Source: Dirinaria sp. TL-2023a
Lineage: Eukaryota
Length of the DNA stretch: 39,340 nt
Assembly (NCBI GenBank): GCA_051941275.1
Contig: JAVEBF010000050.1
Coordinates: forward strand, 1 to 39,340
Reading direction: 5' to 3'
Each line of letters begins with the position of its first letter. The stretch's first letter is position 1. This document shows positions 8,173 to 39,340 of this stretch, in pieces. A program made the position numbers and the translations under genes. Under the pieces are notes generated by a model. That model was not told the DNA's origin, searched no databases, and saw only the letters and a program-made list of their open reading frames with translations.

Positions 8173-9918
8173 CTACGAGAAGCTCCTGCGCCTTACCCTC
8201 ATTCGGACGTACCTCTGTGGGTCCATCGAACCCGGATATGCTTGATGTTCTGACTCTGTGTGGGCACGAGGTGCTGCTGAATTGAACTCCCACAACGCTA
8301 GTATACCAGCCACGAAGGCTAGGACTTGTTTTTCTACAGATCTCATATCCAAGGGCACTGATTTACTGTCGCCCCAACATAGCAATGAGTCCAAATCTTC
8401 CCCAGGAGTTAAAAACCTGTCAGGCCGGAAGAGATCGAGAGGTTCAAAGCATGCGGCGTCTGGAAGTAGTAAAGCGAATGGAATCGCTATGTACTCTCCA
8501 GCTTTAAGCGTATACGATGCTGGCGGTTCATCACTCTTCGTACTCGCCCGGGTATCTCGCACTTCACAGTCGTTCTCTACCTTCCTCAGCGACACCACAG
8601 AGCTATCCAAACGCACGCATTCCCAGTAGCAGGCCCTGAGTAGCTTGCAAGATTTGAGAAGCCCGTCAGCATCCAGTTCAAGACGTGGAGGCTCTGGGAT
8701 GCTAAAGTCACCTGACGGCTGAGTCACTCTAGCAAAGGGCGCACTCTCAGCTCGAACCTTGTCCAGCAAGGTTGGATCGTCGTAAAGGCGGACAAGGAGC
8801 CAGAAAACGAGGCCAGAGATGGCTGTGCCCAGGCTAACATTATCAGCTTGGTCATTCTAGAGAAAGACTGGGCACCTAGCTATAACATACGACCAAATGA
8901 GATACAGATCCAGCGGACCCTTGACTCTTGGCGGGGTACCTCGTTGCCGATAGAGTGAGCTCCTATCCTTCATAAGCCCACAGACGTCGTTTAAATCTCT
9001 CCACGGCGGGTTGAGATCCTCCCCTATAGCGTCTCTGTCAATCGCTTTATGGAACGAATCGATAGCCATTTCCATCCTGCGCCTAGCAATGCGCGCTCTC
9101 AATAGAGCCTGGGCCGGAAACAGGCGAGGCAGGCTTAGCAGAAGGTACCGAAAGCCCGCGTCAAAATCCGAGAGATCATCGAAGATGCCAGGATATATAT
9201 CCAGAAATTCTCTACCAAGCAGAGCCGAGTAGGTGATATGTTTTACGAAACTTCGGATTAAAGGCAAGAAATCCGTCTCTACGACCTTAGCGTCTAAGCG
9301 GGTTGTGTAGCTTGACCTCTCCCACGCTTGTTGATCTACGAGACTCTCGGCGAATGAGATCAATTTTGGCACACTTAGCTCGATGTTCCTGAAAAATGAT
9401 GTAGGGAGAGAATTCTCTCCTCCGCCAAGAGCATTGATGACTGGAACTGCACCAAAATCTTCCCAAGTAATGCGATGCCTGCGCAGTAATTTACTGTCTG
9501 CCCCGAAAGCTCGGCATAGAAGGGACTCAAGCACCGGTGTAGGATCGAAGAAACCCTCTGAATGATCCAGGATCGACTTAGACAGGCATTTACTGTCTAC
9601 AATATTCCACGTGTAGCCAAAAATGATCAAAGCGAAGATGCCGTGGCCCGAATGCTTGCTGCTGTGGTATCAGCAGTAGATCCACTACTCATTGGTTACA
9701 GCACCAGAAACGAACCTGGTTTTCCGGACGAATGAGCCAGGATCCGCGAGTAACGAAAATGTGTGGCCAAGCCAAGGCACCCAATAGGGTATCCTAGGGA
9801 CTCGTTCTTCAGCTGTGTCTCTGGCTTTTGGGAGGCTAATTTGAGTGATTTGGCGGATGTAGCATGCACCTGCCAACGCCAAAAGCAAGGTGATAGAAAC
9901 AGCTGCAAGAGAGGCCAT
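8173..9918 (-). CDS. Cytochrome P450-fold protein (CYP7-like), heme-ligand Cys apparently absent; 3 exons
   Basis: N-terminal membrane anchor followed by PYWVPWLGH, I-helix region ..GLVFWLL, K-helix ECVR (ExxR) and FRPDRF (PERF). The heme loop reads WGDSKSVPLDMRSVEKQV. Introns lie at about 9715-9662 and about 8890-8834. Confidence 0.85.
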
Positions 9919-13697: not shown

Positions 13698-16600
13698 TCA
13701 AATTTCCATATCGCTCATCGCCTGATCCGTGCCGTCATCGAGGGACCGAATAGGCAAATCCAGGCTCTGCTTTTCTTGCTGGGCCATAGCTTGTGCAGAC
13801 ACGAGTTCTGCAAGCCGCTTCAATCGTGGCGTCTGCAACCAGGAAGGGGTGTACGTCTCCAGAGCATTAATGACACGAGGCTCGGCGATCTCATACGGAC
13901 CACTATCCTCCATGTCAACAGCTGTAAGGAGCAGTACATCACCCTTCTCGGTAACGCGGGAGGCTACGGCTTTCATGATGTCGCCGTTAATTGGCTGCTC
14001 GTAATCGGCAACGAGATACTGATTCAAGAGCTTCTGGATTTGGTTAGGAGACAGCCTATGTTATACCGCCGTTAGCCAAAGGTACATGAACGGCTAAGAG
14101 GCTCTGCTTACATCCAACAAATATCCTGAATGATCTCAATGTCATTCAACGTCGCCTTCTTGAGCTGCAATAGCTTTGTAGCTTGCTGAAAAATAGTTAG
14201 CGGACGAAAGATTGGCTGTCAAGCTTGTTGGAGCATACCATCAGATGCTCAAGTTGCAGTGTACCCTCTGGCATATCATGGCTCTTACACCATTCCTCTA
14301 TTCGCGTAATGTTGTAGTTGATTTGAAGGCCGCGTTTCCACGACAGGAAGTTGCGCCGCATGAGTAAATCATTGAAAGCAGTCACACCCACAAGCCTTAG
14401 GAGCTCCGTCAAAGTCTGAGTAATTATCGAATCCTCCAGGTAATAAGCCTTCATGGCTTTGAAGACGTTGTTAAGTAAGCTGAGAAGGTTGTCCATGCTA
14501 TATGCCGGCGTGCTGTTAGATTGGAGTAACTTGCCTAGGAACCTGTTGCTTTCACTCGTCACAAATCCTGGAAGTGACTGGGATTCTATGATCGCTGGTA
14601 CTATCATCTTTTGTAATTTTTTCTTTAGTACCTTCATCCAAGTATGGTATATGTTAAATTCAAGACTCTCCAAGTCATGTTTCACGATCTCAAGGAGCCG
14701 ATCATACTCGAAATTATCCGTCTTCTGCGTCTCATACCAGTCCTCTGCGAGGAAGACAAACGAGAGCATCTCATGTACGTTTGATAGCCAAAAAGCGCCG
14801 GGGTTCACCGCGTCTTCACCTTCATGCTGCATAACTTCTTGCTGAACTGACTGCATTACATTGGCAAGAAACTTTTCAGATTCCTTAACAAAACCATTGT
14901 TCCACATCTCAGACGTCACAAGGTTGATCAAATATGCAGGAAACAATATCTCTTTATCTGTTGGAGGTGGGCTCGAGCTTGGAGTCGGGATCTTCAGGTT
15001 CTTGATGAGACCCAAGGTTACTTCTTCGTTCAAGCCCTCTTCGTCCGACAGGAGGTTTTCCAGCTCGATTTCGACATTGTCTTGGGCCAGAGTAGGACTG
15101 AACGTGGAACCGGAAAGGGTTTGAGGGTGTACAAATCCCGTGAAAGCCATCGAACTGGGACGAGGATTGTATGAAGAACTCACGCGCTCAGCTTCGATAC
15201 GTTCCGCACCGGCGCTTCTCCTTTTCGGCTTCTTGGAAGAAACAAGATTGATGAGCCCATTGACCTGAGGCGCTGCAGCATGCCCGTTTTGGAGCTCCCC
15301 ATTCACAGGCGCTGCTCTCTTGGCCAGATCTAATTGATCTTGCAAGTCTGTCAGCTGCTGACGCAAAGACATCTTCTCATTCTCATGGTCAATGCTAGCT
15401 TGCTTGGCATTGCCGACTTCAACACTTGCCAATCGAAGAGACTCTCGAAGACTTTTTGTTTCTTCCTGTAATCTTTTAGTGTTGGCAGTAGACTCTTCAT
15501 AGGCTTGCTGCAGCCGTCTCATGTCGTCCTCCATAGCGAGCAGGCGAGCAGCAGTAATGCCCGCCTGATTTGCTTCGGCCTGGAGTTCTTTGGATCGCGT
15601 TTCCAGAGCATTGTGCCTGCCCTTCCAGGATTTAAGCTGGCTTTCGTAATTCTCAACTTGCGCTAGCAACACCTTATTCTCGCGCTTGATCGTGCCCAAT
15701 GACTGTGTCAGCTCCACGACCTTATTCTCCAGTTTGTAGGAAATTTGCTTGAGGTCCCTGGCTTCTTCCCGTAATTTCTTATAGTCTCGCCTTGCTGTCT
15801 GACCACGCCACAAACTCTGAAGGATAACAACCTTTCGTCGGTACTGTCTCCAAGATCGTAGTTGTCGACGAGTCCGCCACGACCTCTGTATGATCTGCGC
15901 GGCATTGCCGATCCTGGTCTCCATGATTTTTCTTCGGCATAAATAGCCTTTCGTGACTCCTTGAAGAAGGATGATGTTGTTACGGATTTGGTCATATTCC
16001 TTCTTCGACTTGTGACCTCGCCACACTCTTTGTATGCTCGTCGCAGCCTTGGTTCGCCGCACTTCTTGAGCCCGCTGGCGAGAGAAGAAGCCCCTTGACC
16101 AGGCTTGCATATCCAATATCGATTCTCTAGTATCAAGGTACTTTCTCCGATAGTACTTGCAGCGCAAATTCTTCTGAATCATAATAGCGCATTGGTTCAG
16201 TCTTGACGTACGAAGGTTTTCCAAGAATGCTAGCATTCCTGCGCGGAAAAAAATCTTGGTAAGCCCCAGTTGATATTTGTCCAGGCCCCCGTTCGGACCC
16301 TGTCCTAATGCTTTCTTTAAGATGGCATCAGCCATTTGGCGAATATCCGAAGTCCATGATTCAGAAGGTACGAGCATGTAATAACGCATTGCAAATTCTT
16401 CGTAGGTCCAGCGGGTCGGATACCCGGCGCAACTGATCCTCACAGTCTCTAGAACACCACAAGCTCTCAGTTGACTCAAGACCATAGGTCCTTCGAATGC
16501 CCACGCGTCTTTAGCCTCGTTGGGCTTAATACATCGAATATAATGGACATCCGTGGAATTAATCGTACTCATCAGCTCTATGAGAGATGCTTTGAAGATG

Positions 16601-18715
16601 CCGCCCAACGTTGGCTTTCTGTTGGCTGCAACTCCCATACGTCTGCCAGGAGCCGTCACTACCTTGGTGGTTGACGCAGATGCCGAGTCCTTCTCGCGAA
16701 CTAATGACGCGGTCTCGAGGACCTCTTTCAGAAATGGATTAGTGGATAGGCGGAGTACCTCCATGTATTCATCGGGCATAGTGTCTCTATTCTTCTCTAT
16801 AAAGCCGTCCGACTCGTAGGTAACGTCTATGGCGTAATGGCATACCGTGAAAGCGGATTTCCCGAACCGTGGCTTTTTATAATAGCTTGACTTGTCATTG
16901 GAGAAGTTGTGGTGTAGTTTTGTCACAAATTGCTCGTCAGATCCCATGGGCAACCTTGATTCCTCGTCCAAAAGCGAGAGCACGCCAAGCTTAGCTTCGA
17001 TGAGATCTATGCATGGCTGGTTATCTGAGAAATCGATGAAGGTCCAATCAATCTGCTCCCGCAGGTATTCCTCCTGCTCTAACTTGAAGACATGCTGATT
17101 AAACTCTTGTTGTAGCTTTTCGTTTGCATAATTTATACAGAACTGTTCAAAAGAGTTTTTCGCGAAGTGCTCAAAGCCGTAGATGTCTAATACACCAATG
17201 AAACAGCTAGCGCGGCTGCTTACTTCTTCTGTTGAAAGACTGGCATTAATGGTTCCCACGAGCCATTCGAATAAGCTGGAATAGACAAACTTTGCAACTG
17301 AATCTCGAACGACTAAGGCCTGCTGCTGAGTTAGGTTGGACATAATCTTCTCCCCCCGGGTGATTAGCTGCTTCTTGACAATCCACTTAGCAAATTCAGA
17401 GGCGTCAACACCGAGCATTTGGCATGCTCGCGCTAATGAGGGTTCGGCGGGAGACAGCACCGAGTCTGTACGAGTTGCGGTGATTTTAACATTTCCAAGG
17501 TGGAGAAGCGCACCAAGGATACCGAATATTGACGCTTGTTTCTCCTCACTCACTCCGATTGTTGCCAGCGACTGCTTGGTAGCTTTGAACTCCGCTGAAT
17601 CATCCACACCCTCTATTGCAGGGTTACCGCCCTGGTTGAGGTAATCAAAGTGTTCCACAGAGAGTAATCCAAATTGTTCCCGTTCCTCGTTTGTAGCACC
17701 GGCTACCAGTTGGTAAAAAATGTGGTAGTTTCTCTCTTTCAGCGGTTGGAAGACCAATCTCGATCGTTCAAGTAGATAGGTTCGAATACGGGCTCCGATG
17801 ATTTCAGTTTTCTTGTCAAACATTATCTCGATATATTTTCCAAATCTTGAGGAGTTGTCGTTACGCGTGGTTTTCGCATTGCCGAACGCTTCCATGACGG
17901 GGTTCGTAGCAAGAATCTGCTCCTCGGTCTCGCTCATGGCATCAGCTATACCTCTGGCTCTTTTGCCCGGTTGATCAGGGGATTCCCGGGTGGCGAAGTA
18001 TCTCATGATATATTTCGCGCTTACTGTTTTGCCGGCCCCAGACTCGCCAGAGACAACTATGGTCTGGTTCTTGTTGTCCCGCAACATGTCCCTGCTGATA
18101 ATTAGCAAAAATTGCTGTCTATAGCGAAGACATGCCTTACGAAAAAGCTTCTTCAGCAATAGCGAAAAGATGTGGGGCTTGAGAGGACCGTTGCTTTCCT
18201 GCATATACCTGAACCATGCCAGGCACGTATAAAGAGTCAACGCGTGCAAAAGGATTCGTGGCAATGAGAACAATGCCGCTGTATGTGTAGATCTCTTTTT
18301 GCGAATACCGCAACTTGATGGCTTGTAGGACTAGAACGAAATTAGCGTTAGCTTTGCGTATATTGGGATTAATGCAAGCATGCCTGCTGGCTCGTTCAAA
18401 TACGAAAGATTTGTTAGATCATCACTGGCTTCGAGTATGGCCGGGTTCATCAGAGGTGGGAGCTCGGGGGTCGAGTCGTCCGCCAGGGCCGATGTAGTTG
18501 TCTCGACTACCCTTGTCTGTTGAAGCAGCATTGTCAGCCTGTCGAAGCGGTCCAGCCGCTTGTGTGGGAAGATTGTTCACCTCGCCGTTACTTAGTTCGA
18601 AAAGCAGCGTAACTTTGTCTCCATGAACCGTCTTTGATCGCACCTCGGAGGCGACCCATCCTTCCGTAGGATCTGGCTGCCAGGCTCGCGTACCAGCATC
18701 GTAGTTATGAGCCAT
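13698..18715 (-). CDS. MYO2: Class V myosin (MyoE/Myo2), multi-exon
   Basis: Start MAHNYDAGTRAWQPD, DDLTNLSYLNEP, P-loop GESGAGKT, NDNSSRFGK, LDIYGFE, IQ repeats, coiled coil and a C-terminal DIL domain (SWKRGLQINYNITRIEEW). The long ORF-track start at 18273 is an artefact of introns. Confidence 0.97.
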
Positions 18716-19733: not shown

Positions 19734-21457
19734 CTAATAAAGTACTCTTGTCATGATGCGAGCTGGAAAAAGTCAGCAATCGTCAATGCGTTGCGCCGCA
19801 GGAAAGCCTTTACAGCTCAATGACTCCAAGCTCTGATATATTTCCTTAATCACCGAGCCGCTGACGTCGCTAATGTCTGCCATGAGATATGCAACCTGGG
19901 CGAGGTGAGAATCCAAACAGAAACATCGATGGTTGGATTAGAGGCATACATCGCCACGGCTGTCAGTCATTTGCTTGTCCACATTGTGGTCTCCGAGAAC
20001 TTCATTCACTGTGCGACTTAGCATTAGATTACGGGCGTGGATTGTCCACAGACTTGCCCTTCCGCAGAACGCCAGGTACGTTATGGTGGATGTAGATAAC
20101 GCGTACATGGTTTGGCTCGTCCATTGTGAGTGAGCGAAGATTGACTTCGGGCATATTGACAGCTCCAAGAGTAGCCCCTTCGTTTACATAACGGACGAGC
20201 GCATCCCCGACCTCGGTGCCTATCGCTCTTTGAGCCTCTTCAGTACTGCCTCCAATATGTGGAGTGAGAATGATGTTCTTGAGGCTGCGGAGGTCATCTG
20301 CCCAAGGGTTCAAATCATTCACGAAATAATCTCCGTTACCACTGGGCTCTGCTGGATACACGTCGAGTGCCGCACCAGCGACTTTACCAGCTCTCATTGC
20401 GTCTATTAATGCGGGTATGTCGATAACGCTCCCACGGCTGGCGTTGATCAGATAACTACCATCTTTCATTTGACTGAACTGTTCCGTGCCAATCATCTTT
20501 TGTGTTTCTGGCAGTTCAGGAACATGACAGGTTACGAAATCCGAACACCGGAGGAGGGCCTCAAGAGTTGGCAGCTGCTTCGCTGTGCCCATTGCCATAA
20601 GATTAACTGTGTCGTAGAAATTGACGGTCATGCCCATAGCTTCAGCCAGAACTGACAGCTGAGACCCAATATGGCCGTAGCCAATGATTCCTGGTTTCAC
20701 ATTAGAGGTTCATAGGCCGACTGCTACGAACGCAAGTACCTAGTGATTTTCCACGTATCTCCCAGCAGCCATTGCTAACCTTATTCCAAGTCCCATTGTG
20801 CATCTCGTTCGAGCGATCACCGAGCTGGCGCGCTAAGGCGATGACCTCTGCAATGACCAGTTCCGCAACACTGCGTGAGTTGCTGAAGGGGGAATTGAAG
20901 ACGGCAATGCCATTTTTGGCGGCATACTGCGTATCTACCTGATTCGTACCGATACAGAAGCAGCCAATGACAATAAGGGTTTTGGCCTCCCGTAGAACTC
21001 GGGCTGTGAGCTTGGTCTTTGAACGGATGCCTATGACATGTATGTCGCTATTAATGGATCAATTTTGCAATCTTCGCAGTGTAGAAAGCGACGATCTACC
21101 CCACCGTATTTTGTTGATCAGCTCATCTTCGGACAAGGAGGATTTGAGCGCTTCCACCTGATAACCTTGGGCTCCCAATATATCCTGCCCTGTCTTGTTG
21201 ACATTTTCCAACAACAGAATCTTAATGTCCTCTGTTGCGAACGGCTTCAATTGCTTTGCAAACGAGCTTGTACCCCTTCGTGCCAATGAGGTCCCAGCCT
21301 TGCTCTGACTATGCGAGAAAGAGGAAAGGGTCCCTATCGGGGACGCTGATGTCCCAAGACTGGACGAGACTCTGGTGGCCAGACCATCCATCTCAGGCGG
21401 CATATCCATGTCATTAGGAGAACCATTGAGACCTGTCGAAATCATACTGGGAGGCAT
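19734..21457 (-). CDS. SER3: D-3-phosphoglycerate dehydrogenase with C-terminal ACT domain (multi-exon; start codon uncertain)
   Basis: LKPFATEDIKILLLENVN, GIRSKT, GCFCIGTNQVD, FSNSRSVAE, GIIGYGHIGSQL, NASRG, TPHIGGSTEEAQ and HHNVPGVLR. Ends RIMTRVLY*. Confidence 0.95.
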
Positions 21458-22920: not shown

Positions 22921-24372
22921 CTAGCTCTGCTTGCACTCGGCTGCTTCTTGCTTGGGCTTTCCGCCGTCGTCCTAGAAGCGTATTAGTGGCCTTGCAAGCG
23001 ATGATTGATGTCAAATTTACCTCTTCGTCCGACTCCTCATCTTCCTCCCGATCATCGCTTCCATCATCATCATCTTCTTCATCGTCTTCGTCCTCGAAGC
23101 CGCCTACACCCAAATCATCGTCGTCGAGCTCCTCGAATTGCAGCGCCTCACCAGTAAACCAATCAATAGCGCGTGGAATAAGCTTTTCTTTGACGTCTTC
23201 TCCTAACTGATAATCCAGCTCCAGACGCTCCTCAACATCTTCCGGAACGTCTTCGTCTTCACTCTGGGGTGCCTTTGGGGGGTCAAAGAAATTGAAGAAT
23301 GACTCTTTGGGCACAGTCTTCTTCACAACACGAGTTTGCTTTGTGTCTGGAGAAACGGAGCGTTAGATATTACACAGGTGCAGCGTTACATTGGAGTACC
23401 CACTCTTGTTGCGTTGCTTCTTGCTCTCTATGCGCACAGTGAGATCTTTGTCGTCCTTCCAATTGATCTTGTCACCATCAGCGTGGTCGTAAATGAAGTC
23501 GCCACCGTAGCCGCTCTCTTCTTGGTAATAGTAGGTCTTGGTGATAGTCTTGTTCGTGAAGAATTCGTTTTCGGCAAATTCAAAGATAAGTCGAAAACCT
23601 GGTCGCTCAAGATACTCCATGCGAATGTCGGTCAAAGACTTTAGCGCTAGCTGATCATCGTCCGTGATCAGCTCGGCCAGAGAGACCTGATTCTTCATGG
23701 CAGAAAGCCAGAATTCCGGAATGCCTTTAATATCAGCTGCAGACTCATTCATTTCTGATTCTTCTGCCTTGCTCGACTCGGTCTCGTCGTCCTCTTTGGC
23801 TTGTTTACCGGCATTGACTTCCTCTTCGGAAGGCTCTGCGGCACCATTGACAATCCGGGCGCGCTTCTGATAGAGCGGCGTGAATTTAGCAAAGTACTTC
23901 TTCTCCAGTTCCAAAACTTCCTCTTGGAATTGTGCCTCGAGCTTCGAGTGCTCTTTCTGTACACCCTTAAGGCCAGCGACCCGACGACGAACAGGTGCAG
24001 AGAGCGACTCGATGTAGCCCGATGGACGCCCCACGAGCGAACTGAGTTTCCCTTCCATTAACGAGACAAGCTTCGGGTTTTGAGCGAATATCGATGCGGC
24101 CGCGGCACGATCGAATTCCTCTTTTACATGGATCAGTGAGAGGAATGACGAAACCAGAGCATAGCATGACAACTTCGATGCACTTACCTTCCTTGATGCT
24201 GGAAACTCCGGGCTGCTGAGCATGCGAAGATATTGGAGCATTGTTGGCAGGCGTATTTTGGGGTGTGCTACGACGCCACGGTCAGCCAGTGCCTTTCAGC
24301 AGTCAAGACCAGAAAGGTTTTGTACGGTGCAGTCTGAAGGTCAAGCTTCTTGTTGCGAATTGGTTCCGACAT
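22921..24372 (-). CDS. NAP1: Nucleosome assembly protein 1 (multi-exon)
   Basis: [55 protein letters not shown], acidic tail and C-terminal ECKQS* (CaaX-like). Confidence 0.96.
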
Positions 24373-24956: not shown

Positions 24957-27900
24957 ATGCTAGAGAGGGGCCAGAATAGCAAGATGAATGGCAGCAGCCC
25001 CCACCCCGTAGAATCACGCCGCAGCGGCGAAAGGAGCTATAGACGGACGAGCACAACAAGTAATAGCTATTTCAATATGCCATTATATCGACACAATTCC
25101 AATATGAGCCAGTGAGATTCCTTGACCACTTCATAATCTCAAATTTTCTATAACCCATTCTGATCGTCTCACAGCGTCAGCTTTGTGTCCGAAGTTGAAA
25201 TGGCCCACGATGAGGTCTCAGGCTACAGATGCTCGGCTACCTTGTCGCCTAGAAGCTGACGGAGGTCAGGTATTTGCTGGTCCAATGTCAGAAAGTGTGC
25301 CCTCGAGTATCACAAGTTTTGTGAACCGCCGTTCACACGCAGACTCAGTAACGAGTTTTACATACTTTCAAGAAGAGGACGAGTCTCCCGAATATCTTAG
25401 CGATCAGGCGATTATTGATGAGAGCGATGATGAAACTGATAGCAGCAAGCAAATCAATGATGATTTGGCCTCGAGCATCGTCCTACCACGCCGAAAGCAA
25501 TCATCTGCCATGTCACGTATGTCAGCTGAGGATCCTCTTCTCCAGGGTCATGACTCGCCCGAAATCCAAGCGACCGTTCGTGGTCATGCCGCACGGACAA
25601 ATCAGAAGATTAGCATCGAGACTGAAGGTCTTCTCATCGTTATTGCAGGTTTCAAAACGAGAATATCTGGTTATACCGCTTATATCACGCTTTGCGTATT
25701 AACTTTAGGCCTCTGCTATCTCCTGCTTCGCTGGCTGCCTCGTTGGCGAGTATGGATGATTGGGTGTCCTAAGCCGTTGCAAGAGTGTGCTTGGGCGGTG
25801 ATTGAGGTATAATTACCCTCTGATCAGGAATCAACGTGACGTCGCTAAAAAAAAAAAAAAAAAAACAGAATCAATGGGGCGAGTTTACGGTACAGGATAT
25901 AGATCGACTGTCGTATGGCCATAGCTTGTCTACTGTATTTGGCACGCTAGAGAAGACGAGCTTCGACGATAATGATGAAGATGATGACCCAGTCGTGGCG
26001 GTCTTGAGGTTTTTAGACTATCGATACATACGATTCTGCTTCCACCCCCTTAAAGATAGGTTTGTACCTTGCAGTAATTGGAAAGATCCTGCTTGGACCG
26101 ACGTCAGGAAAATGAGGACAGGTCTTGACAGTGAAGAGCGGTCTAGGCGGGAACAGGTTTTTGGTAAAAATGATATCGAGATACGTCAGAAATCTAGTCT
26201 GCAGTTACTTGTCGATGAGGTGAGTTGTGATTCTTCACAAGCTGGTGGCTTTCTAATATCTCCCTCAGGTCTTCCACCCATTCTATGTCTTCCAGATTGC
26301 GAGCCTGACACTTTGGTCACTGGACGAATACTACTATTATGCAGTATGCATCTTTCTGATCTCGGTCGTTAGTATTATCACTACTCTAATGGAAACGAGG
26401 AATGTATGCTTCCACACCAACCTATATCATCGCTCGCTTCGCTAATCAGATACTAAGACAATGAAACGTCTTCGCGAGATATCTCGGTTCCAGTGCGAGA
26501 TCAGGGTCTTGCGTAATGGATTTTGTGAGCTTGTGGGTCATCTACGTAGGTCGAGCTTTGCTGAGACGTCGTAGGGCGTCAAGTGCTCAGTAGTGAACTT
26601 GTTCCCGGCGATGTCTTCGAAGTCTCAGACCCTTCTCTGAGTCAGATCCCTTGCGATAGCTTGCTACTAGCCGGCGATTGCGTGATGAATGAGAGCATGC
26701 TTACTGGTGAGTCTATACAGCTGATACTAAGGGAAACTACTATAACCTTTCAAAGGCGAGTCAGTACCGGTATCAAAAGTGCCAGCAATAAATGATACTT
26801 TGCACCTCTTAGATTTAAGAGCGAATTCGATCAGCGCAGAAGTTGCCAAGCACTTCTTATACAGTGGCACGAAACTCATTCGTGCTCGGCGTCCACAAGA
26901 AACTTCAAACGATGAAGCCGCGGCCCTTGCCATCGTTGTACGGACTGGTTTTAACACAACCAAAGGGGCTCTCATTCGTTCAATGCTATTCCCAAAGCCT
27001 TCCGGTTTCAAGTTTTACAAAGACGCCTTTCGTTACATATCCGTCATGGCTGTAGTCGCTGGGATCGGCTTCATTGCTTCTTTCATAAATTTTTTCCGGC
27101 TTGGAGTAAGCTTACAACTATATTTTCTTCTTTCAAGCTTACTTGTTGTAGTTGGCATGGCATCTGATCATTGTGCGAGCGTTGGACTTGATTACGATAG
27201 TGGTGCCTCCCGCGTTACCTGCGACACTGACCATTGGGACGAATTTCGCACTTTCTCGTCTGAAAAAAAAGGACATATACTGTATCAGCCCTCAACGGTA
27301 ATACCTGTCGGTCAGTCAGCGAACGTCGCTAACCTTCTTAAGGGTCAATGTCGGTGGAAAATTAGACATTGTCTGTTTCGATAAGACAGGTACTCTCACT
27401 GAGGAAGGACTAGATGTCCTGGGACTTAGAGTTGTGAATCGTCCAGCGATGAGGTATGAAATCTTTCGCTCAGCGCGATAACGGCGTCTTACAATATTCA
27501 AGGTTCAGTGACATACAGCTTGGTCCCACAGAGCTGCTTCCTAGCGCCGCCTTTGAGCGGGATCCTACCGTTGACTATGAGCTTCGTAAGGCCGCTTTGT
27601 ATACAATGGCGACTTGCCATTCGTTGCGTGTCGTAAATGGCGAGGCGATTGGAGACCCTTTAGATATTAAAATGTTTGAGTTCACTGGCTGGCTGTTCGA
27701 AGAAAACGAGCGAAAGACCAGTGAAGTTGATTACGATGAGCAGAACGATATGCCTACTTCAATAGCCAGACCGCCTGCAGGTTCAGAATATGACATCAAT
27801 GATCCTACAGAACCTAGCTCCGTGAGACCTCCAAATTCGAGGCCTCTTGCAACGCTAATTAATGACCCTAGTACTCTCCAATCGAACTCCGCGTTCTGAA

Positions 27901-30024
27901 GAACTTTGAATTTGTTACCCAGTTACGCCGGGCTAGCGTAATTGTACGGGAAGCCCAAGACTCAGGTGGAGCCGTTTACGTCAAAGGTGCTCCTGAGTGT
28001 ATGGTGGATATTTGTAACCCAGCCAGCTGTACGTATATCCTCGAGGCCCAACTTAGCATTCCACTGATCACCACGATATCCACAGTTCCAACAGATTATG
28101 AGGATCTTCTAGCATTTTACACTCATCGGGGCTTCCGTGTCATTGCTTGCGCAACCAAACGCTTCCAAAAACTTACTCCGAAGATGGTCAAAAAGGTGAA
28201 GAGATCCGACGCCGAAAAGGATTTAGAGTTTATCGGCTTTATTATCTTCGAAAATAAACTGAAGCCATCAAGCGAAGGAGTTATCAAAGAGCTTCATGAA
28301 GCAAACATTCGACAGATCATGTGTACTGGAGACAACATACTTACTGCGATATGCGTCGCAAGGGAGAGTTCATTGATCGACCGAACAGCTCATTGTTTCG
28401 TCCCACATTTTGTTGAGGGTATGTATCTTGTTATAGATGAGACCTACGACGCTGACGCTCAGTGAGGTGGAGTGCAAGACTTCAAAACTCGTCTTAAATG
28501 GCAGAGCGTGGACAACCCTTTGTTCGAGCTAGACGACGAAACCCTGACTGTAAGCTCTCTGCTGGTTATCGAGTACACCGTTGACATCTGTAGCCGTTGC
28601 CACCACCAGTGGAAGGTGACGCGTCGCTGCCTTACGAAATGTCAAATATCCGAAATTATACCCTTGCCGTGAGTGGTGATGCTTTCAGGTGGATCATCGA
28701 GTATGGCAGTGACGAAATGTTGCAGAGGGTAGGTATCGCTCGCTGAACCAACGATGATATGGGCTAATAATGATCAGATGTTGGTTTGTGGTCAAGTGTT
28801 TGCGAGAATGTCACCTGATGAGAAACATGAATTGATCGAGAGACTTCAGAGCATAGACTATTGCTGTGGTTTCTGTGGCGATGGTGCTAATGACTGCGGT
28901 GCTTTGAAGGCAGCAGACGTTGGGATCTCTCTATCCGAAGCAGAGGCGTCAGTTGCAGCTCCCTTCACAAGCCGTATCTTCAACACCTCTTGCGTTCCTC
29001 AAATCGTCCGGTAAATGGAAAGCCAGCTCTCTTTCGAAACTTTCACTAACAATTGTATAGGGAGGGACGTGCAGCGCTTGTAACGAGTTTTTGCTGTTTC
29101 AAGTACATGAGCTTATATTCAGCAATTCAGTTCACCACTGTGAGCTTTTTGTATGCTTCAGCATCTAACTTAGGGGACTTCCAAGTATGAAAGCCACGAT
29201 GTCGTCGCCCAAAAAGACTAACGCTACATTCTAGTTCCTTTACATTGACCTGTGCTTGATTTTGCCCATTGCAATTTTCAGTAAGCGGCCTCCTATCTCA
29301 TCGATGCACGCTTACATCTCTGACACTACGCCAGTGGGCTGGACAGGTCCTTATCCCATTCTGTCCCGCAAGCGACCGACTGCAAGCCTCGTGTCTCGGA
29401 AGATCCTCATCCCATTGCTTGGACACGTTGCTTTCTGCATCTTGGTACAGCTTATTGGCTTCAAATCTGTTCAACGACAAACATGGTCAGATCAAATGTC
29501 AATGTAGGTTTAAAGGAAGTTATGCTGACTTATCTTAGGTTCATACCTCCAAAATTGGACAAGGAACATTCGAATATCTCCAACTCGGAAAATACAACCC
29601 TTTTCCTGCTGTCCTGCTATCAGTATATACTGTCCGCTCTCATTCTCAGCAGTGGTCCACCATTTAGACAATCGATGACAAAAAACCGTAAGATTTCTAT
29701 TGGACGCTAAGGGATGTAAGAGGGCTAAATTATGTAGTGCCCTTGGTCGTGACTATCGTAACAACTGTTCTCTTCTCCTCCTATATGCTTTTCGATCCAG
29801 CAAAAGCGCTCGCCAGTTTCATGCAGCTGACTCGTATGAGTGCTGAGTTCGAGACATTTGTTCTTGCATTGGCACTAGGAGGATTTGCATGCGGTTGGGT
29901 AGGGGAGCGAAGAGTCTTTCCTTGGCTTGCGCGCGTAGTGGGTAGAAGGCATATCATCCGATGGACTGGTCGTAGGCAGCAACGGAAGCGATACAAGACT
30001 CTATTGGAAGGCATGCGAATATAG
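24957..30024 (+). CDS. YPK9: P5B-type ATPase (Ypk9/ATP13A2-like, putative polyamine transporter), many introns; start approximate
   Basis: [10 protein letters not shown]4 VPPALPATL (P5B signature), phosphorylation site [28 protein letters not shown] and [21 protein letters not shown]. Confidence 0.93.
25847..25865 (+). repeat. A19 homopolymer at the 3' end of an ATPase intron
   Basis: GTCGCT-A19-CAG directly before the exon AATCAATGGGGC. Confidence 0.9.
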
Positions 30025-30624
30025 ATGGTTGCAGCCAATGCCACAGAAGAAATTATAGAAAACAATTTCAGGAAAAAGGACCAGGGCAAGGCGCCGAATC
30101 AAAACGTGGCCGTAGTTGTTCAAGATAACCCTTTATGAGGTGGACCCGAATTGTGCATATGCTCGCAACATGTCAACAATAGCGCATTTGAAATATTTGA
30201 ATATGAAGTATCGAGCTATCACTATATGATAACAGATGTCCGTAGTAAACTATGTCAGAGTCATTGTTTCTATCATATCCATGCTAATCTTTCGGTTCGA
30301 TAGAAAACATCACTGCATCATAAATTTCGCTTAGAGGTTCGTACGAGAGCATACAGTATCATGGATAGCGATCAGTTGAATGTACAATTTTGCTTGTCTG
30401 CCATCGTTTATTGCTGTAGACTCGCCTTAGCCACCGGCTCTAGAAGAGATTCTCCCTCCACCTCACAAACATATCTAACAGAAAAAGGTTATCGAGGGAG
30501 AAATTGTTCAGATGATCAAAGCGACAGCAAGATTGAAACTACTACCTAGGGCTTTAGATTTCGGATTAGAGCGCATTCGATGCAGAGACTATTCAGATCA
30601 TTTATAACTATATGTGTGTATATA

Positions 30625-34178: not shown

Positions 34179-35200
34179 ATGGCTGTCGGAAAGTGAGTAG
34201 CTGGAGAAATCGTTCTCTACATACCTTCACTTAGGTGCAGCGGCATATGGGCCCCAAATGCTAACTCCGGCCCAGGAACAAGCGCCTTTCCAAAGGCAAG
34301 AAAGGCCTCAAGAAGAAGACCCAAGACCCCTTCACCCGTAAAGACTGGTACTCAGTCAAAGTAAGTCTCAAGGATCATTACCAAGGACCGAATCCCTAAC
34401 ATATCGACAGGCGCCTTCCACTTTTCAGATCCGGGAGTATGATCAAAATTAAGCCAATCAAAAACCTAAAACTGAATTTCGAGCAGTGTCGGAAAAACGT
34501 TGGTCAACCGAACAACAGGTCTCAAGAACGCAAACGATGCTCTTAAAGGGAGGATATTCGAGGTCTCTCTCGCCGACCTGCAGAAGGATGAAGATCATGC
34601 TTTCCGCAAAGTCAAGCTTAGGGTAGACGAGATCCAGGGAAAAAATTGTCTCACCAATTTTCATGGCCTCGATTTCACCTCCGACAAACTGCGATCTCTC
34701 GTGCGCAAGTGGCAGACTCTGATCGAGGCCAACATCACGGTCAAGACCACGGATGACTACCTGCTGCGCCTTTTTGCCATTGCATTTACGAAGCGGCGGC
34801 CCAACCAGATCAAAAAAACCACGTACGCACGCTCGTCGCAAATTCGGGCCATCCGCAAGAAGATGGTGGAGATCATTCAGCGCGAAGCATCAAGCTGCTC
34901 CCTATCGCAGATGACAACGAAACTCATCCCCGAGGTCATTGGTCGCGAGATTGAGAAGGCTACCCAGGGCATTTACCCCCTCCAGAATGTACGAACATAT
35001 GGCCCCCGGTCTTTATCGGAAAGTTATCTCTTTGATTATCTACTGACGTTTGCAAGGTCCATATCCGCAAAGTCAAGCTACTGAAAGCCCCCAAATTCGA
35101 CCTTGGTGCACTTCTGAACTTGCACGGGGAGTCAACCACGGACGAGCAAGGTCAAAAGGTAGAGCGGGAATTCAAGGAGCAGGTCTTAGAGAGTGTCTAG
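34179..35200 (+). CDS. RPS1: 40S ribosomal protein eS1 (S3a), 5 exons
   Basis: [84 protein letters not shown] and EQVLESV*. Confidence 0.98.
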
Positions 35201-37204: not shown

Positions 37205-37422
37205 TGTTAGGACCGGTGCAGAGCTCACGTCAATGCAGGTATGATTAACTAAGGATATTATCACTGAGGAAAGAAGAAGAGAAGCTAGATACAATAGGGG
37301 GCCCCGAGTTTATATGCGTGTGTGCGGGTGTCGGGTAAACACCCAGATCAGGTTAGCGCATTACCCCCGAGAACCCTGGAAGGTGTTGCCCCAGGTAGTA
37401 TACCAGGTGCATGCTCGTAACA
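37205..37422 (-). mobile_element. Solo LTR (218 bp), probably Ty3/Gypsy type
   Basis: Termini are TGTTA...TAACA, with an exact 5-bp TSD TCAAT at 37200-37204 and 37423-37427. On the minus strand it starts TGTTACG and has a CATATAAA TATA-like box followed by a pyrimidine tract. Confidence 0.85.
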
Positions 37423-37708
37423 TCAATAACATATGGGTACAAATAGACTAGGACACTGTCTATAAAAAAGGAAAGAAAATGAAATCTATCTACAGACAGA
37501 TTTAAATGTGAGCTCGAAACAACATCGATTCGAGAGCGCTAAATCTAATCAGACAAAAACATAATATTTTTAACAAAATATTTAATATAAGACGTATTAA
37601 TCTATTTTATTAGCAGGCATCAATGCGAATTATTATTGAGGAATTCGATCATATTATCAATTAAAACTACCTTTGAATTCGAAGAGCTACTGAGGATTAT
37701 CACTGACG

Positions 37709-39340
37709 ATGAGGTCCGCGATTCACTCTGATCGTCGCGACAAGATAAACGCGATCGACGCGACGTCGACAAATGAACGAGACATCATCGAGACGTCTTC
37801 GCAGAGAAAGATATCAAAATCGAACGAAATATTGAATGAGATAAATAAAATTGTGAGACTCTATGAGTCTAAGAGAATCTATGTCAGCGAAATAATGTCG
37901 ATGACTAAACTGCACAATCTGTTCGACATGATTCGCGCAAAAACGCGTCAGAGCGAAGTCGCAATTATCTCGATCACACAAAATGATAACGACGCGATGA
38001 TTGCGCGACTTGAGAAAATGATCAGCAGATTTGAAAAAGCTGTACAAAAGAAGAAACACGTGCAGAAAAAGAGCAATTGAGCGAAAATAACGATCATGAG
38101 CATCGCGAGCGCACAGAGAACAACACGCGTTAACGTTACTGCTATATCGTCGAAACGTCAGCTGAGCAAAGAACTGAAAATTGTGATCTGAATCAAAGAA
38201 AACGCGAAAACGAAAAAAATACAGAAAATGAGTATAGCAGAGATAATCGCACTGACACAAAAGTTCAACAGCGTCAACACGCTGTCGACGCGCAAAAATA
38301 TATTGAGAATTCGAAAATTCAAAAGCATGATAGTTTTTCGCGTCGACTCGAAAACTGTTAGAAAAACGCTGAAATCGAGCGATTATTGAGTCAAAGATGT
38401 ATTTAAAACGATCACTCTGCGTCAGAAACGCGCAGACGTACTGATACACGAAATACGAGTCAAAAAAATGTCAGTAGATATGACGAAAAGTTCAAAATGT
38501 CAAAGATTCAATTTTGATTAAATAGATTTCTCAATGATAAAAGTTTCGACAGCGTCAAAAGATTAACTAAATCAAATCAAAAGATTTGATGTCTATTTTA
38601 CTATTTAAATATTTCAGAATCGTAACACAAAGATCATTGAAGAAATCTGCGCAAAAACACATTCGAGACTTAAAATGAATAAAACAAAGTGATTTACGAA
38701 GAATATCGACAAAAAAGATTATTCGTTTTTGATCGTGTGAGTCACGAGCGCTGAAATGACAAATCGTCTGATTCAATGAGATATAACGATTGAATTCGAC
38801 ATCAAGACGATTCAGTATTACGACAAAGAGAGCAGACTGAAGCAGTGTTTGAAATGTCAAAAATATGAGCATCTAATCTACGCGTGCAAGAATAATCAAC
38901 AATGCGCTCACTGCGCACAGAATCATCGCACAGAAATCTGCTCTAATATCAAGAAAGAGAACAGCTGAAAATGCGAAGCATGCAAGAGCAAGCATCGAGC
39001 GTTTGATCTCAGATGTTCTAAAAGACAGACTAAAAAACAAAAAATCAGAGTCGTCGAAAGAGTGAGATCGACGCTACACGCGATGCGCGTCACGACGACG
39101 AATAGATTAACGACAAATTTCATCTTGAGAAACATATCAACGTCGTCAGTCGTACTGAAGAAGACAGATAAACGAAAAGTTTCATCGATCTCGAGCTCAA
39201 GCAAATCATCGACGACGAGCAAATTTCAGAACGCTTCGATAGTTGCTGAGAATAGCGTGACAGTTAAACTACTTAAGAAAAATCGATCGAATGACTCAAT
39301 CGAGAGTCAAACGACATTGACGAGTCAGCGTAACGACGAC
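37709..39340 (+). mobile_element. Inactivated non-LTR retrotransposon (Tad1-like LINE) ORF1/gag, hypermutated; runs off the window end
   Basis: One reading frame from 37709 to the window end, broken by TGA codons and an AT-rich insert. Three Cys/His knuckles at 38846-39016 (CLKCQKYEHLIYAC, CAHCAQNHRTEIC, CEACKSKHRAFDLRC) are typical of fungal LINE ORF1. Confidence 0.85.

Follow-up and report, generated by a model that had tools for sequence, protein, structure and literature searches.

We analyzed a stretch of 39,340 nucleotides from Dirinaria sp. TL-2023a (hereafter the window; GenBank assembly GCA_051941275.1, contig JAVEBF010000050.1, positions 1 to 39,340, forward strand), which ends in a long tract without a single CC or GG dinucleotide, lying within what homology identifies as a degenerate open reading frame 1 (ORF1) of a non-long terminal repeat (non-LTR) retrotransposon. 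The window belongs to the nuclear genome of a lichen-forming ascomycete (class Lecanoromycetes); the product of its myosin-5 gene (14197-18330, minus strand) shows 92% identity to JGI fungal proteins and 86-87% identity to proteins from metagenome-assembled genomes of Teloschistales, e.g. Squamulea, Teloschistes and Caloplaca. An earlier note on this DNA, made from the sequence alone, had described the tract as the relic of a long interspersed nuclear element (LINE) and had proposed that it was shaped by a defence akin to repeat-induced point mutation (RIP) but specific for CpC. The features at this end of the window are:

37470..37716, no strand: AT-rich upstream flank, 247 nt
37709..39340, plus strand: degenerate gag-like ORF1 of 544 codons, not closed before the window ends and legible only with TGA taken as Trp
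37717..39340, no strand: CC/GG-free tract, 38.5% G+C, reaching the window end so that only its 5' edge is visible
38078..38968, plus strand: span of seven in-frame TGA codons (first bases 38078, 38189, 38387, 38690, 38738, 38777 and 38966), each a former TGG
38495..38629, plus strand: AT-rich insert, 135 nt, 24% G+C, with three TAA codons, CC/GG-free
38846..39016, plus strand: zinc-knuckle region of the CCHC type, from CLKCQKYEH to FDLRC, as placed by alignments

A CC/GG-free tract and its degenerate ORF1

Direct counting across the 1624 nt of 37717..39340 gives zero CC and zero GG, where base composition predicts 120.9 of the two together. The lowest count in 2000 mononucleotide shuffles of this interval was 90, and 708 other windows of 1624 nt taken from the same sequence contain a minimum of 123 and a median of 174. 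The second-longest gap between CC or GG dinucleotides in the window measures 146 nt (37470-37616), and no gap lacking any other dinucleotide class exceeds 216 nt. The absence is real and far beyond chance, and every countable claim that the earlier note had made about it was confirmed. The single visible edge of the tract, at 37717, is sharp: the final CC and GG upstream of it belong to GAGGTCC (37712-37716), which forms codons 2 and 3 of ORF1. Outside the tract, the observed-to-expected ratio of CC plus GG in the other 37 kb of the window is 0.94, and the single-copy genes of the window have a normal CC/GG content.

The loss of these two dinucleotides is accompanied by a distinctive composition. 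CA (117), TG (82) and CG (125) all remain common, TC (114) and GA (185) are enriched and TA is scarce, with observed-to-expected ratios in the bin 38001-39000 of 1.56 for TC, 1.30 for GA, 1.87 for CG and 0.52 for TA. The tetranucleotide TCGA, which had already been singled out as conspicuous, occurs 27 times in the tract against 5.2 expected, and TCG occurs 44 times; the excess of TCGA together with the CpG enrichment fits conversion of CCGG to TCGA and shows that the relic has undergone no methyl-CpG decay. The loss of G+C is modest (38.5% in the tract against a comparison value of 47.6%), and runs of A and of T are intact.

The frame that opens with the ATG at 37709 continues for 544 codons to the window end without a frameshift, and is interrupted only by the seven TGA codons, at exactly the positions that the earlier note had given for the stops outside the insert, and by three TAA codons confined to the insert (38519, 38564 and 38606); no TAG occurs in frame. 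When the C-terminal 240 codons were searched with HMMER, TGA being read as Trp, 1579 proteins with e-value ≤1e-3 were recovered. Full-length ORF1 relatives of 511-541 amino acids (P0123, P0125, P0130 and P0132) align along the whole window frame over about 500 residues, and a more distant relative, P0239, is a fused prediction that also contains the Exo_endo_phos_2 and RVT_1 Pfam domains of an endonuclease and a reverse transcriptase. Compared with the consensus of 17 relatives, the zinc-knuckle region has kept all nine conserved cysteines and all five histidines and none of the glycines in seven conserved columns, these having been replaced by glutamate or serine. Pfam searches with two pieces of the ORF1 gave nothing above threshold. 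On the strength of these alignments the element in the tract is assigned to the ORF1 of a non-LTR retrotransposon; the label LINE derives from ORF1 homology, since the window stops before any ORF2. LINE/Tad1 elements are reported to account for close to half of the repeat fraction in Xanthoria parietina (bioRxiv 10.1101/2025.11.25.690456), and by analogy with that report the element might be placed in the Tad1 clade. It resembles the Tad1-clade LINEs of filamentous ascomycetes in having an ORF1 with CCHC-type knuckles and in belonging to a family that is abundant among fungal-type proteins, and differs from them in that the window displays ORF1 alone, with no reverse transcriptase seen.

Homology to the proteins of the relatives begins at about 37700-37709 in tblastn comparisons. 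An impression gained by eye, that homology to the element resumes in another frame about 80 nt upstream of the ATG, was dropped because tblastn gave it no support. The AT-rich flank is possibly the 5' untranslated region of the element; its 6 CC/GG dinucleotides against 11.4 expected decide nothing. The 135-nt insert corresponds to a gap in the protein P0273 (see below) and in all intact relatives, and its CC/GG-free state carries little weight, as only 3.8 such dinucleotides are expected there; a repeat search of 37400-39340 recovered no repeat, target-site duplication or source that would explain it. Scans of metagenome contigs with the C-terminal part of ORF1 and with P0273 yielded no confirmed locus, and scans of viral and genome contigs with P0273 found none; likewise, a degenerate 30-letter pattern for the knuckle had no match in the genome or viral contigs, and blastn had none in the phage and plasmid collections. 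Antisense to the relic lies an ORF of 218 codons (37814-38470, minus strand), which is probably a by-product of the skewed composition.

Converted bases and their sequence context

To reconstruct the changes we relied on P0273, a protein of 411 amino acids from an ENA contig, which was the sole protein returned by a word-index search with the whole read-through frame and which retains both glycine and proline. The two align over 382 codons, 240 of them identical and 142 different. Going from P0273 to the window, 110 of these differences can be accounted for by C>T or G>A changes alone and 13 by the reverse changes alone, while 19 call for changes of another kind. Once the 110 transition differences are set aside P0273 is about 92% alike, and hence is close to the progenitor. 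The residues that were lost and kept are strikingly partitioned: none of 21 glycines and none of 20 prolines survive, while glutamine (CAR codons) is kept at 16 of 16 positions, cysteine (TGY) at 9 of 10, tyrosine at 5 of 5 and lysine at 33 of 37. The intact CAA and CAG codons had been pointed out before, as had the likely original state of several motifs, which were decoded as CQKYGH, HGIRV and HPGL; each of these decodings finds its counterpart in P0273, which reads CQEYGH, VHGVRV and IHPGLK where the window reads CQKYEH, IHEIRV and THSRLK. Read codon by codon, the alignment shows that C>T and G>A transitions affecting both strands produced the tract out of an ORF1 resembling that of P0273.

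The fates of individual codons specify which member of each pair was hit. All seven TGA codons are aligned with a tryptophan in P0273, and TGG has become TGA in every case, never TAG or TAA. Among 20 proline positions 16 are now TCN, the others being TTC, CTC, ACA and GCT (one each). The 21 glycine positions are now GAN (9), AAN (4), AGN (7) and GTC (1), and their outcome depends on the preceding base: where glycine follows C or T (seven positions: GAN 5, GTC 1, AAC 1) the first G is retained in six, whereas after G (six positions) AGN is found in five. The latter is the outcome to be expected if the first G of the codon, itself a G after G, was converted and the second G was thereby protected. 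The outcomes for tryptophan, proline and glycine therefore fit one sequential rule, namely that C before C becomes T, which is equivalent to G after G becoming A.

Two further tests used positions at which the ancestral base can be deduced from the residue in P0273. For the first codon position an ancestral G was assumed where P0273 has Gly, Glu, Asp, Val or Ala, and this G has turned into A at 36 of 36 positions with a G before it, at 1 of 31 with a C, at 4 of 13 with a T and at 15 of 38 with an A, although the preceding A in this last class may itself be a former G. For the second position an ancestral C was assumed where P0273 has Thr or Ala, and this C has turned into T at 12 of 12 positions with a C after it, at 0 of 23 with a G, at 3 of 20 with an A and at 4 of 12 with a T. 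The p-values of Fisher tests applied to the context tables range from 1e-9 to 3e-18; the all-or-none figures beside G or C are partly forced by the very absence of GG and CC, so that the informative parts are the low rates in other contexts and the choice of the member of the pair. In all, 127 non-synonymous transitions were deduced, 86 of them G>A and 41 C>T on the sense strand. On its 3' side the mutated C is followed by C in 86 of them, by T in 31, by A in 8 and by G in 2, whereas any base may precede it (T 44, G 33, A 26 and C 24).

These data qualify the proposed CpC specificity, which is dominant without being absolute. Arginine AGR codons have become lysine AAR at 9 of 16 positions, and as the mutated G here follows A, this amounts to CpT>TpT on the opposite strand; moreover, the ratio (CpT+ApG)/(TpT+ApA) stands at 0.49 for the tract and at 0.94 elsewhere in the window. 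Taken together, the contexts define the order CpC (every site) > CpT (about a third to a half of sites) >> CpA and CpG. The reconstruction shows that both strands were converted to saturation at the 5' C of CpC, as the earlier note had surmised, and that CpA and CpG were almost never touched.

Such a footprint escapes the customary measures. The usual cut-offs of the two classic RIP indices are about 0.89 for TpA/ApT and 1.03 for (CpA+TpG)/(ApC+GpT). With values of 0.50 and 1.14 respectively the tract is scored as un-RIPped, in agreement with the prediction that standard indices would miss it; by contrast, (CpC+GpG)/(TpC+GpA) is 0 in the tract and 0.77 in the rest of the window. The state of the tract also bears on its age. 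A CC or GG would arise from 22.6% of all possible single-base changes in it (from 25.9% of the transitions), yet the tract contains neither; taking about three unseen events as the upper bound for this zero, at most about 12 substitutions (<0.8%) have accumulated since the last conversion. As no change recreating CC or GG has built up, the mutating agent would have been active recently or might still be active.

The same footprint, at the protein level, is apparent in at least 11 other members of the family. Eleven of 152 relatives (P0121-P0272) contain neither glycine nor proline over lengths of 71-384 residues and yet retain tryptophan (P0121, P0126, P0127, P0129, P0131, P0133, P0135, P0182, P0209, P0212 and P0251). 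In these 11, methionine, whose codon is always ATG, is never followed by a residue with a G-starting codon (V, A, D, E or G; 0 of 69 against 11.6 expected), while tryptophan precedes one in 5 of 42 cases (7.1 expected); for methionine in the other relatives the figure is 415 of 953. We also aligned 15 relatives with no or almost no glycine and proline to their best intact partners. Columns with glycine in the partner mostly hold Glu (34), Lys (27), Asn (26), Asp (25) or Arg (12), along with others, and proline columns hold Ser (40), Leu (8) or Phe (5); tryptophan columns keep Trp at 36 of 41 positions, and arginine columns hold Lys (83) or Arg (76). The simplest reading is that the DNA of the 11 relatives would also be GG-free and that their apparent tryptophans would be TGA codons, translated as such by a metagenome gene caller applying genetic code 4. 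These glycine- and proline-free database proteins look like mutated relics of the same kind, and hence like spurious entries in public collections; as they span several ORF1 subfamilies, the process would have acted many times.

The mutating process and its alternatives

The closest known system is RIP, as studied in Neurospora crassa and other Pezizomycotina, where it depends on RID and DIM-2. As in RIP, the differences are overwhelmingly C:G to T:A (110 of 142 explained by C>T/G>A only), both strands are affected, the ORF of a transposon is riddled with stops, a member of a repeat family is struck while the single-copy genes in the window are spared, and the preference is governed by the base 3' of the C. 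The neighbor preference, however, is inverted. PMC5496416 gives the order for RIP as CpA>CpT>CpG>CpC in N. crassa, and as CpA~CpG, with CpT>CpC, in T. reesei, and the same partition of contexts is found in bioRxiv 10.1101/344036. Here CpC (all) precedes CpT (part), with CpA and CpG far behind, and this inversion accounts for there being no gain of TpA, no TAA or TAG arising from glutamine codons, a modest loss of G+C and the retention of CpG. Canonical RIP was accordingly rejected, given the 16 of 16 retained CAR codons and the TpA/ApT of 0.50, as had been argued from the sequence. We class the case as one that works like RIP yet lacks its canonical context feature.

Contexts other than CpA have been reported. 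In Amselem et al. 2015 (PMC4352252), CpT-biased RIP signatures in Magnaporthe oryzae, Botrytis cinerea and Sclerotinia sclerotiorum are ascribed to a specialised RID/Masc1-type protein; the signatures named there are CpA, CpT and CpG, and the string 'CpC' occurs 0 times in that text. The present tract shares with them a pyrimidine 3' of the mutated C, CpT being its second target, and differs in that CpC is dominant and saturated. Horns et al. 2012 (PMC3318451) describe a TpCpG hypermutation in Pucciniomycotina (Microbotryum and Puccinia), which is likewise a strict, non-CpA, lineage-specific C>T process directed at transposable elements (TEs); its target is TCG, whereas here CpG is spared and TCG is abundant. 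RIPCAL (PMC2621366) defines a CpC>TpC class with an index of its own, yet CpA was found dominant. CpC goes unmentioned in PMC7882544, a paper on lichen genomes. Full-text literature searches, which did not extend to the supplementary tables of the surveys or to Clutterbuck 2011 (which may bear on the matter), found no CpC-dominant case.

In light of these comparisons, we consider it probable that this retrotransposon copy was inactivated by a cytosine hypermutation directed at TEs, akin to RIP but unusual in its context preference. The agent would act on double-stranded genomic DNA after integration of the element, which would be recognised because it is repeated; action would be premeiotic and, as in RIP, would recur over many sexual cycles until saturation is reached. 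It could be a RID/DIM-2-type cytosine methyltransferase-like enzyme or another deaminase with the preference CpC > CpT >> CpA, CpG. The tract is confined to a member of a multi-copy retroelement family. The mechanism put forward in the earlier note is thereby supported, subject to the part played by CpT and to the still putative dependence on repeats.

Several points weigh against this reading. The ancestral states are read from P0273, a related protein that is not itself the ancestor, so synonymous changes go unseen, and some contexts are ambiguous because a 3' neighbor that is now T may once have been C. Only one locus and one edge of the tract are visible, and the GG-free DNA and the reading of TGA as tryptophan in the 11 relatives are deduced from protein sequences. 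Measured RIP ranks CpC last in both N. crassa and T. reesei (PMC5496416), and a RID-type enzyme with the opposite, CpC-first preference is without precedent. RIP in Lecanoromycetes has so far been represented by GC-poor tracts of 10-20% G+C, as in Cladonia rangiformis (PMC12542154), from which the present tract, with 38.5% G+C and rich in CpG, differs. Finally, we infer rather than observe that the process depends on repeats or homology, which enzyme carries it out and when it acts.

Among the alternatives, the one that fares best, though we regard it as unlikely, is methylation of CpC and CpT in TE heterochromatin followed by deamination of 5-methylcytosine, with targeting by chromatin or small RNA, along a route resembling methylation induced premeiotically (MIP) or one directed by heterochromatin, and not by DNA homology. 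It predicts the same footprint of transitions on both strands confined to TEs, C>T mutation of the DIM-2 type and linked to heterochromatin is known from Neurospora, and targeting by chromatin and by homology look alike in the window. Yet the conversion of about 120 of 120 sites, with no CC or GG recreated, implies a rate far above that of spontaneous deamination, and CpG, the usual site of decay, is untouched (0 of 23 for C before G and 1 of 31 for G after C, with a CpG observed-to-expected ratio of 1.87). The same figures led us to reject plain CpG methylation decay.

Editing coupled to retrotransposition is improbable. Under this explanation an APOBEC-like single-strand deaminase with a preference for CC would have acted on the RNA or the complementary DNA (cDNA) of the element before or during integration. 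CC is a known target pair of APOBEC3G-type enzymes, and the likeness extends to the conversion of tryptophan codons to stops and to a retroelement as the victim; furthermore, the tract starts near the onset of detectable protein homology. APOBEC3G, however, acts solely on the minus strand, where it deaminates the 3' C of CC and so produces GG>AG and TGG>TAG. The tract instead displays both C>T (41) and G>A (86) on one strand, both saturated, and the 5' C was hit, with seven of seven tryptophans becoming TGA and with proline giving 16 serines against a single leucine, the opposite of what GG>AG predicts; the contrast with APOBEC3G drawn in the earlier note is upheld on both counts. Complete conversion in one event is implausible, a copy with seven stops in ORF1 cannot cycle alone, and the insert, although foreign to the element, is CC/GG-free as well, with only 3.8 expected.

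That the tract is an artefact of sequencing, base-calling or assembly confined to a heavily modified repeat is very improbable. It does touch the window end. But the frame of 544 codons has no frameshift, the changes obey codon logic with respect to an independent protein, the intact A and T runs speak against the collapse of homopolymers, and the other 37 kb are normal. In addition, at least 11 other database proteins from different subfamilies, whatever their source assemblies, bear the same footprint.

We give hardly any credence to the converse idea that an active element evolved to avoid CC and GG, for instance to escape a host nuclease or mutator, so that the composition would be adaptive and not damage. 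The cysteines, histidines and glutamines of the knuckle are kept, the frame is open apart from TGA, and avoidance of RIP target sites by Microbotryum TEs was proposed by Hood et al. (as cited in PMC3318451). Against it, seven conserved tryptophan codons are stops under the standard code, all 21 glycines and 20 prolines have been replaced, including conserved glycines of the knuckle, and a 135-nt insert with three TAA codons breaks ORF1. Damage by ultraviolet light at dipyrimidines can be set aside: CC does belong to the dipyrimidines, and lichens of this group grow fully exposed to light, but ultraviolet transitions fall on the 3' base of the dipyrimidine and include CC>TT, whereas here the 5' C is hit after any base, and the effect breaks off at a sharp edge, sparing the remainder of the window.

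Wider meaning and the rest of the window

The evidence base is one locus together with protein-level footprints in its relatives, and it points to a mutator that prefers CpC, the context least used by measured RIP. Extending this, we tentatively advance the bolder idea, for which the odds are less than even, that Lecanoromycetes, or at least this lineage, run a mutator enzymatically distinct from canonical RIP, i.e. a double-stranded DNA cytosine deaminase or methyltransferase that reads a 3' pyrimidine (CpC, then CpT), converts essentially every site, is active now and has been missed by surveys based on indices. If so, the reason for its being missed would be that it barely lowers G+C and leaves TpA low, and RIP-like defence in lichens would be under-reported by such surveys. 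In papers on lichen genomes RIP is either described as GC-poor tracts or called with RIPper (PMC12542154 and bioRxiv 10.1101/2025.11.25.690456), and surveys that use TpA/ApT-type indices or AT-rich isochores would score genomes of this kind as RIP-poor. A kingdom-wide k-mer survey reports that RIP-like defences share a preference for CpA (PMC12543289), and the tract described here would depart from that rule.

Sequence data offer no handle on the unresolved chemistry of RIP other than context preference. A lineage with an inverted and essentially absolute preference would constitute a natural specificity variant of the responsible enzyme, and setting its RID/DIM-2 homologues or other deaminases beside their counterparts in CpA-type fungi could reveal what determines neighbor choice. 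There are also practical consequences. Confronted with the conversion of tryptophan codons to TGA, metagenome gene callers seem to switch to genetic code 4 and to deposit spurious proteins. Since mutation of this kind is deterministic, independently mutated copies converge in sequence, and estimates of TE age and of identity between copies can mislead.

The remaining genes of the window are:

14197-18330, minus strand: myosin-5, a long fungal ORF with introns, confirmed by protein matches
8173-9669, minus strand: intron-bearing fungal ORF, normal CC/GG
20029-20709, minus strand: intron-bearing fungal ORF, normal CC/GG
23363-24295, minus strand: intron-bearing fungal ORF, normal CC/GG
25126-28465, plus strand: intron-bearing fungal ORF, normal CC/GG
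34476-35084, plus strand: intron-bearing fungal ORF, normal CC/GG

Rfam and tRNA scans of the window returned no matches. By eye, the five ORFs other than myosin-5 resemble a cytochrome P450, a D-3-phosphoglycerate dehydrogenase, a NAP1-type histone chaperone, a P5-type ATPase and a ribosomal protein S1/S3a. The sole other 300-nt window with less than half of the expected CC plus GG lies at 30151-30450 (10 against 22.4; 39% G+C), a mild dip that is probably compositional.

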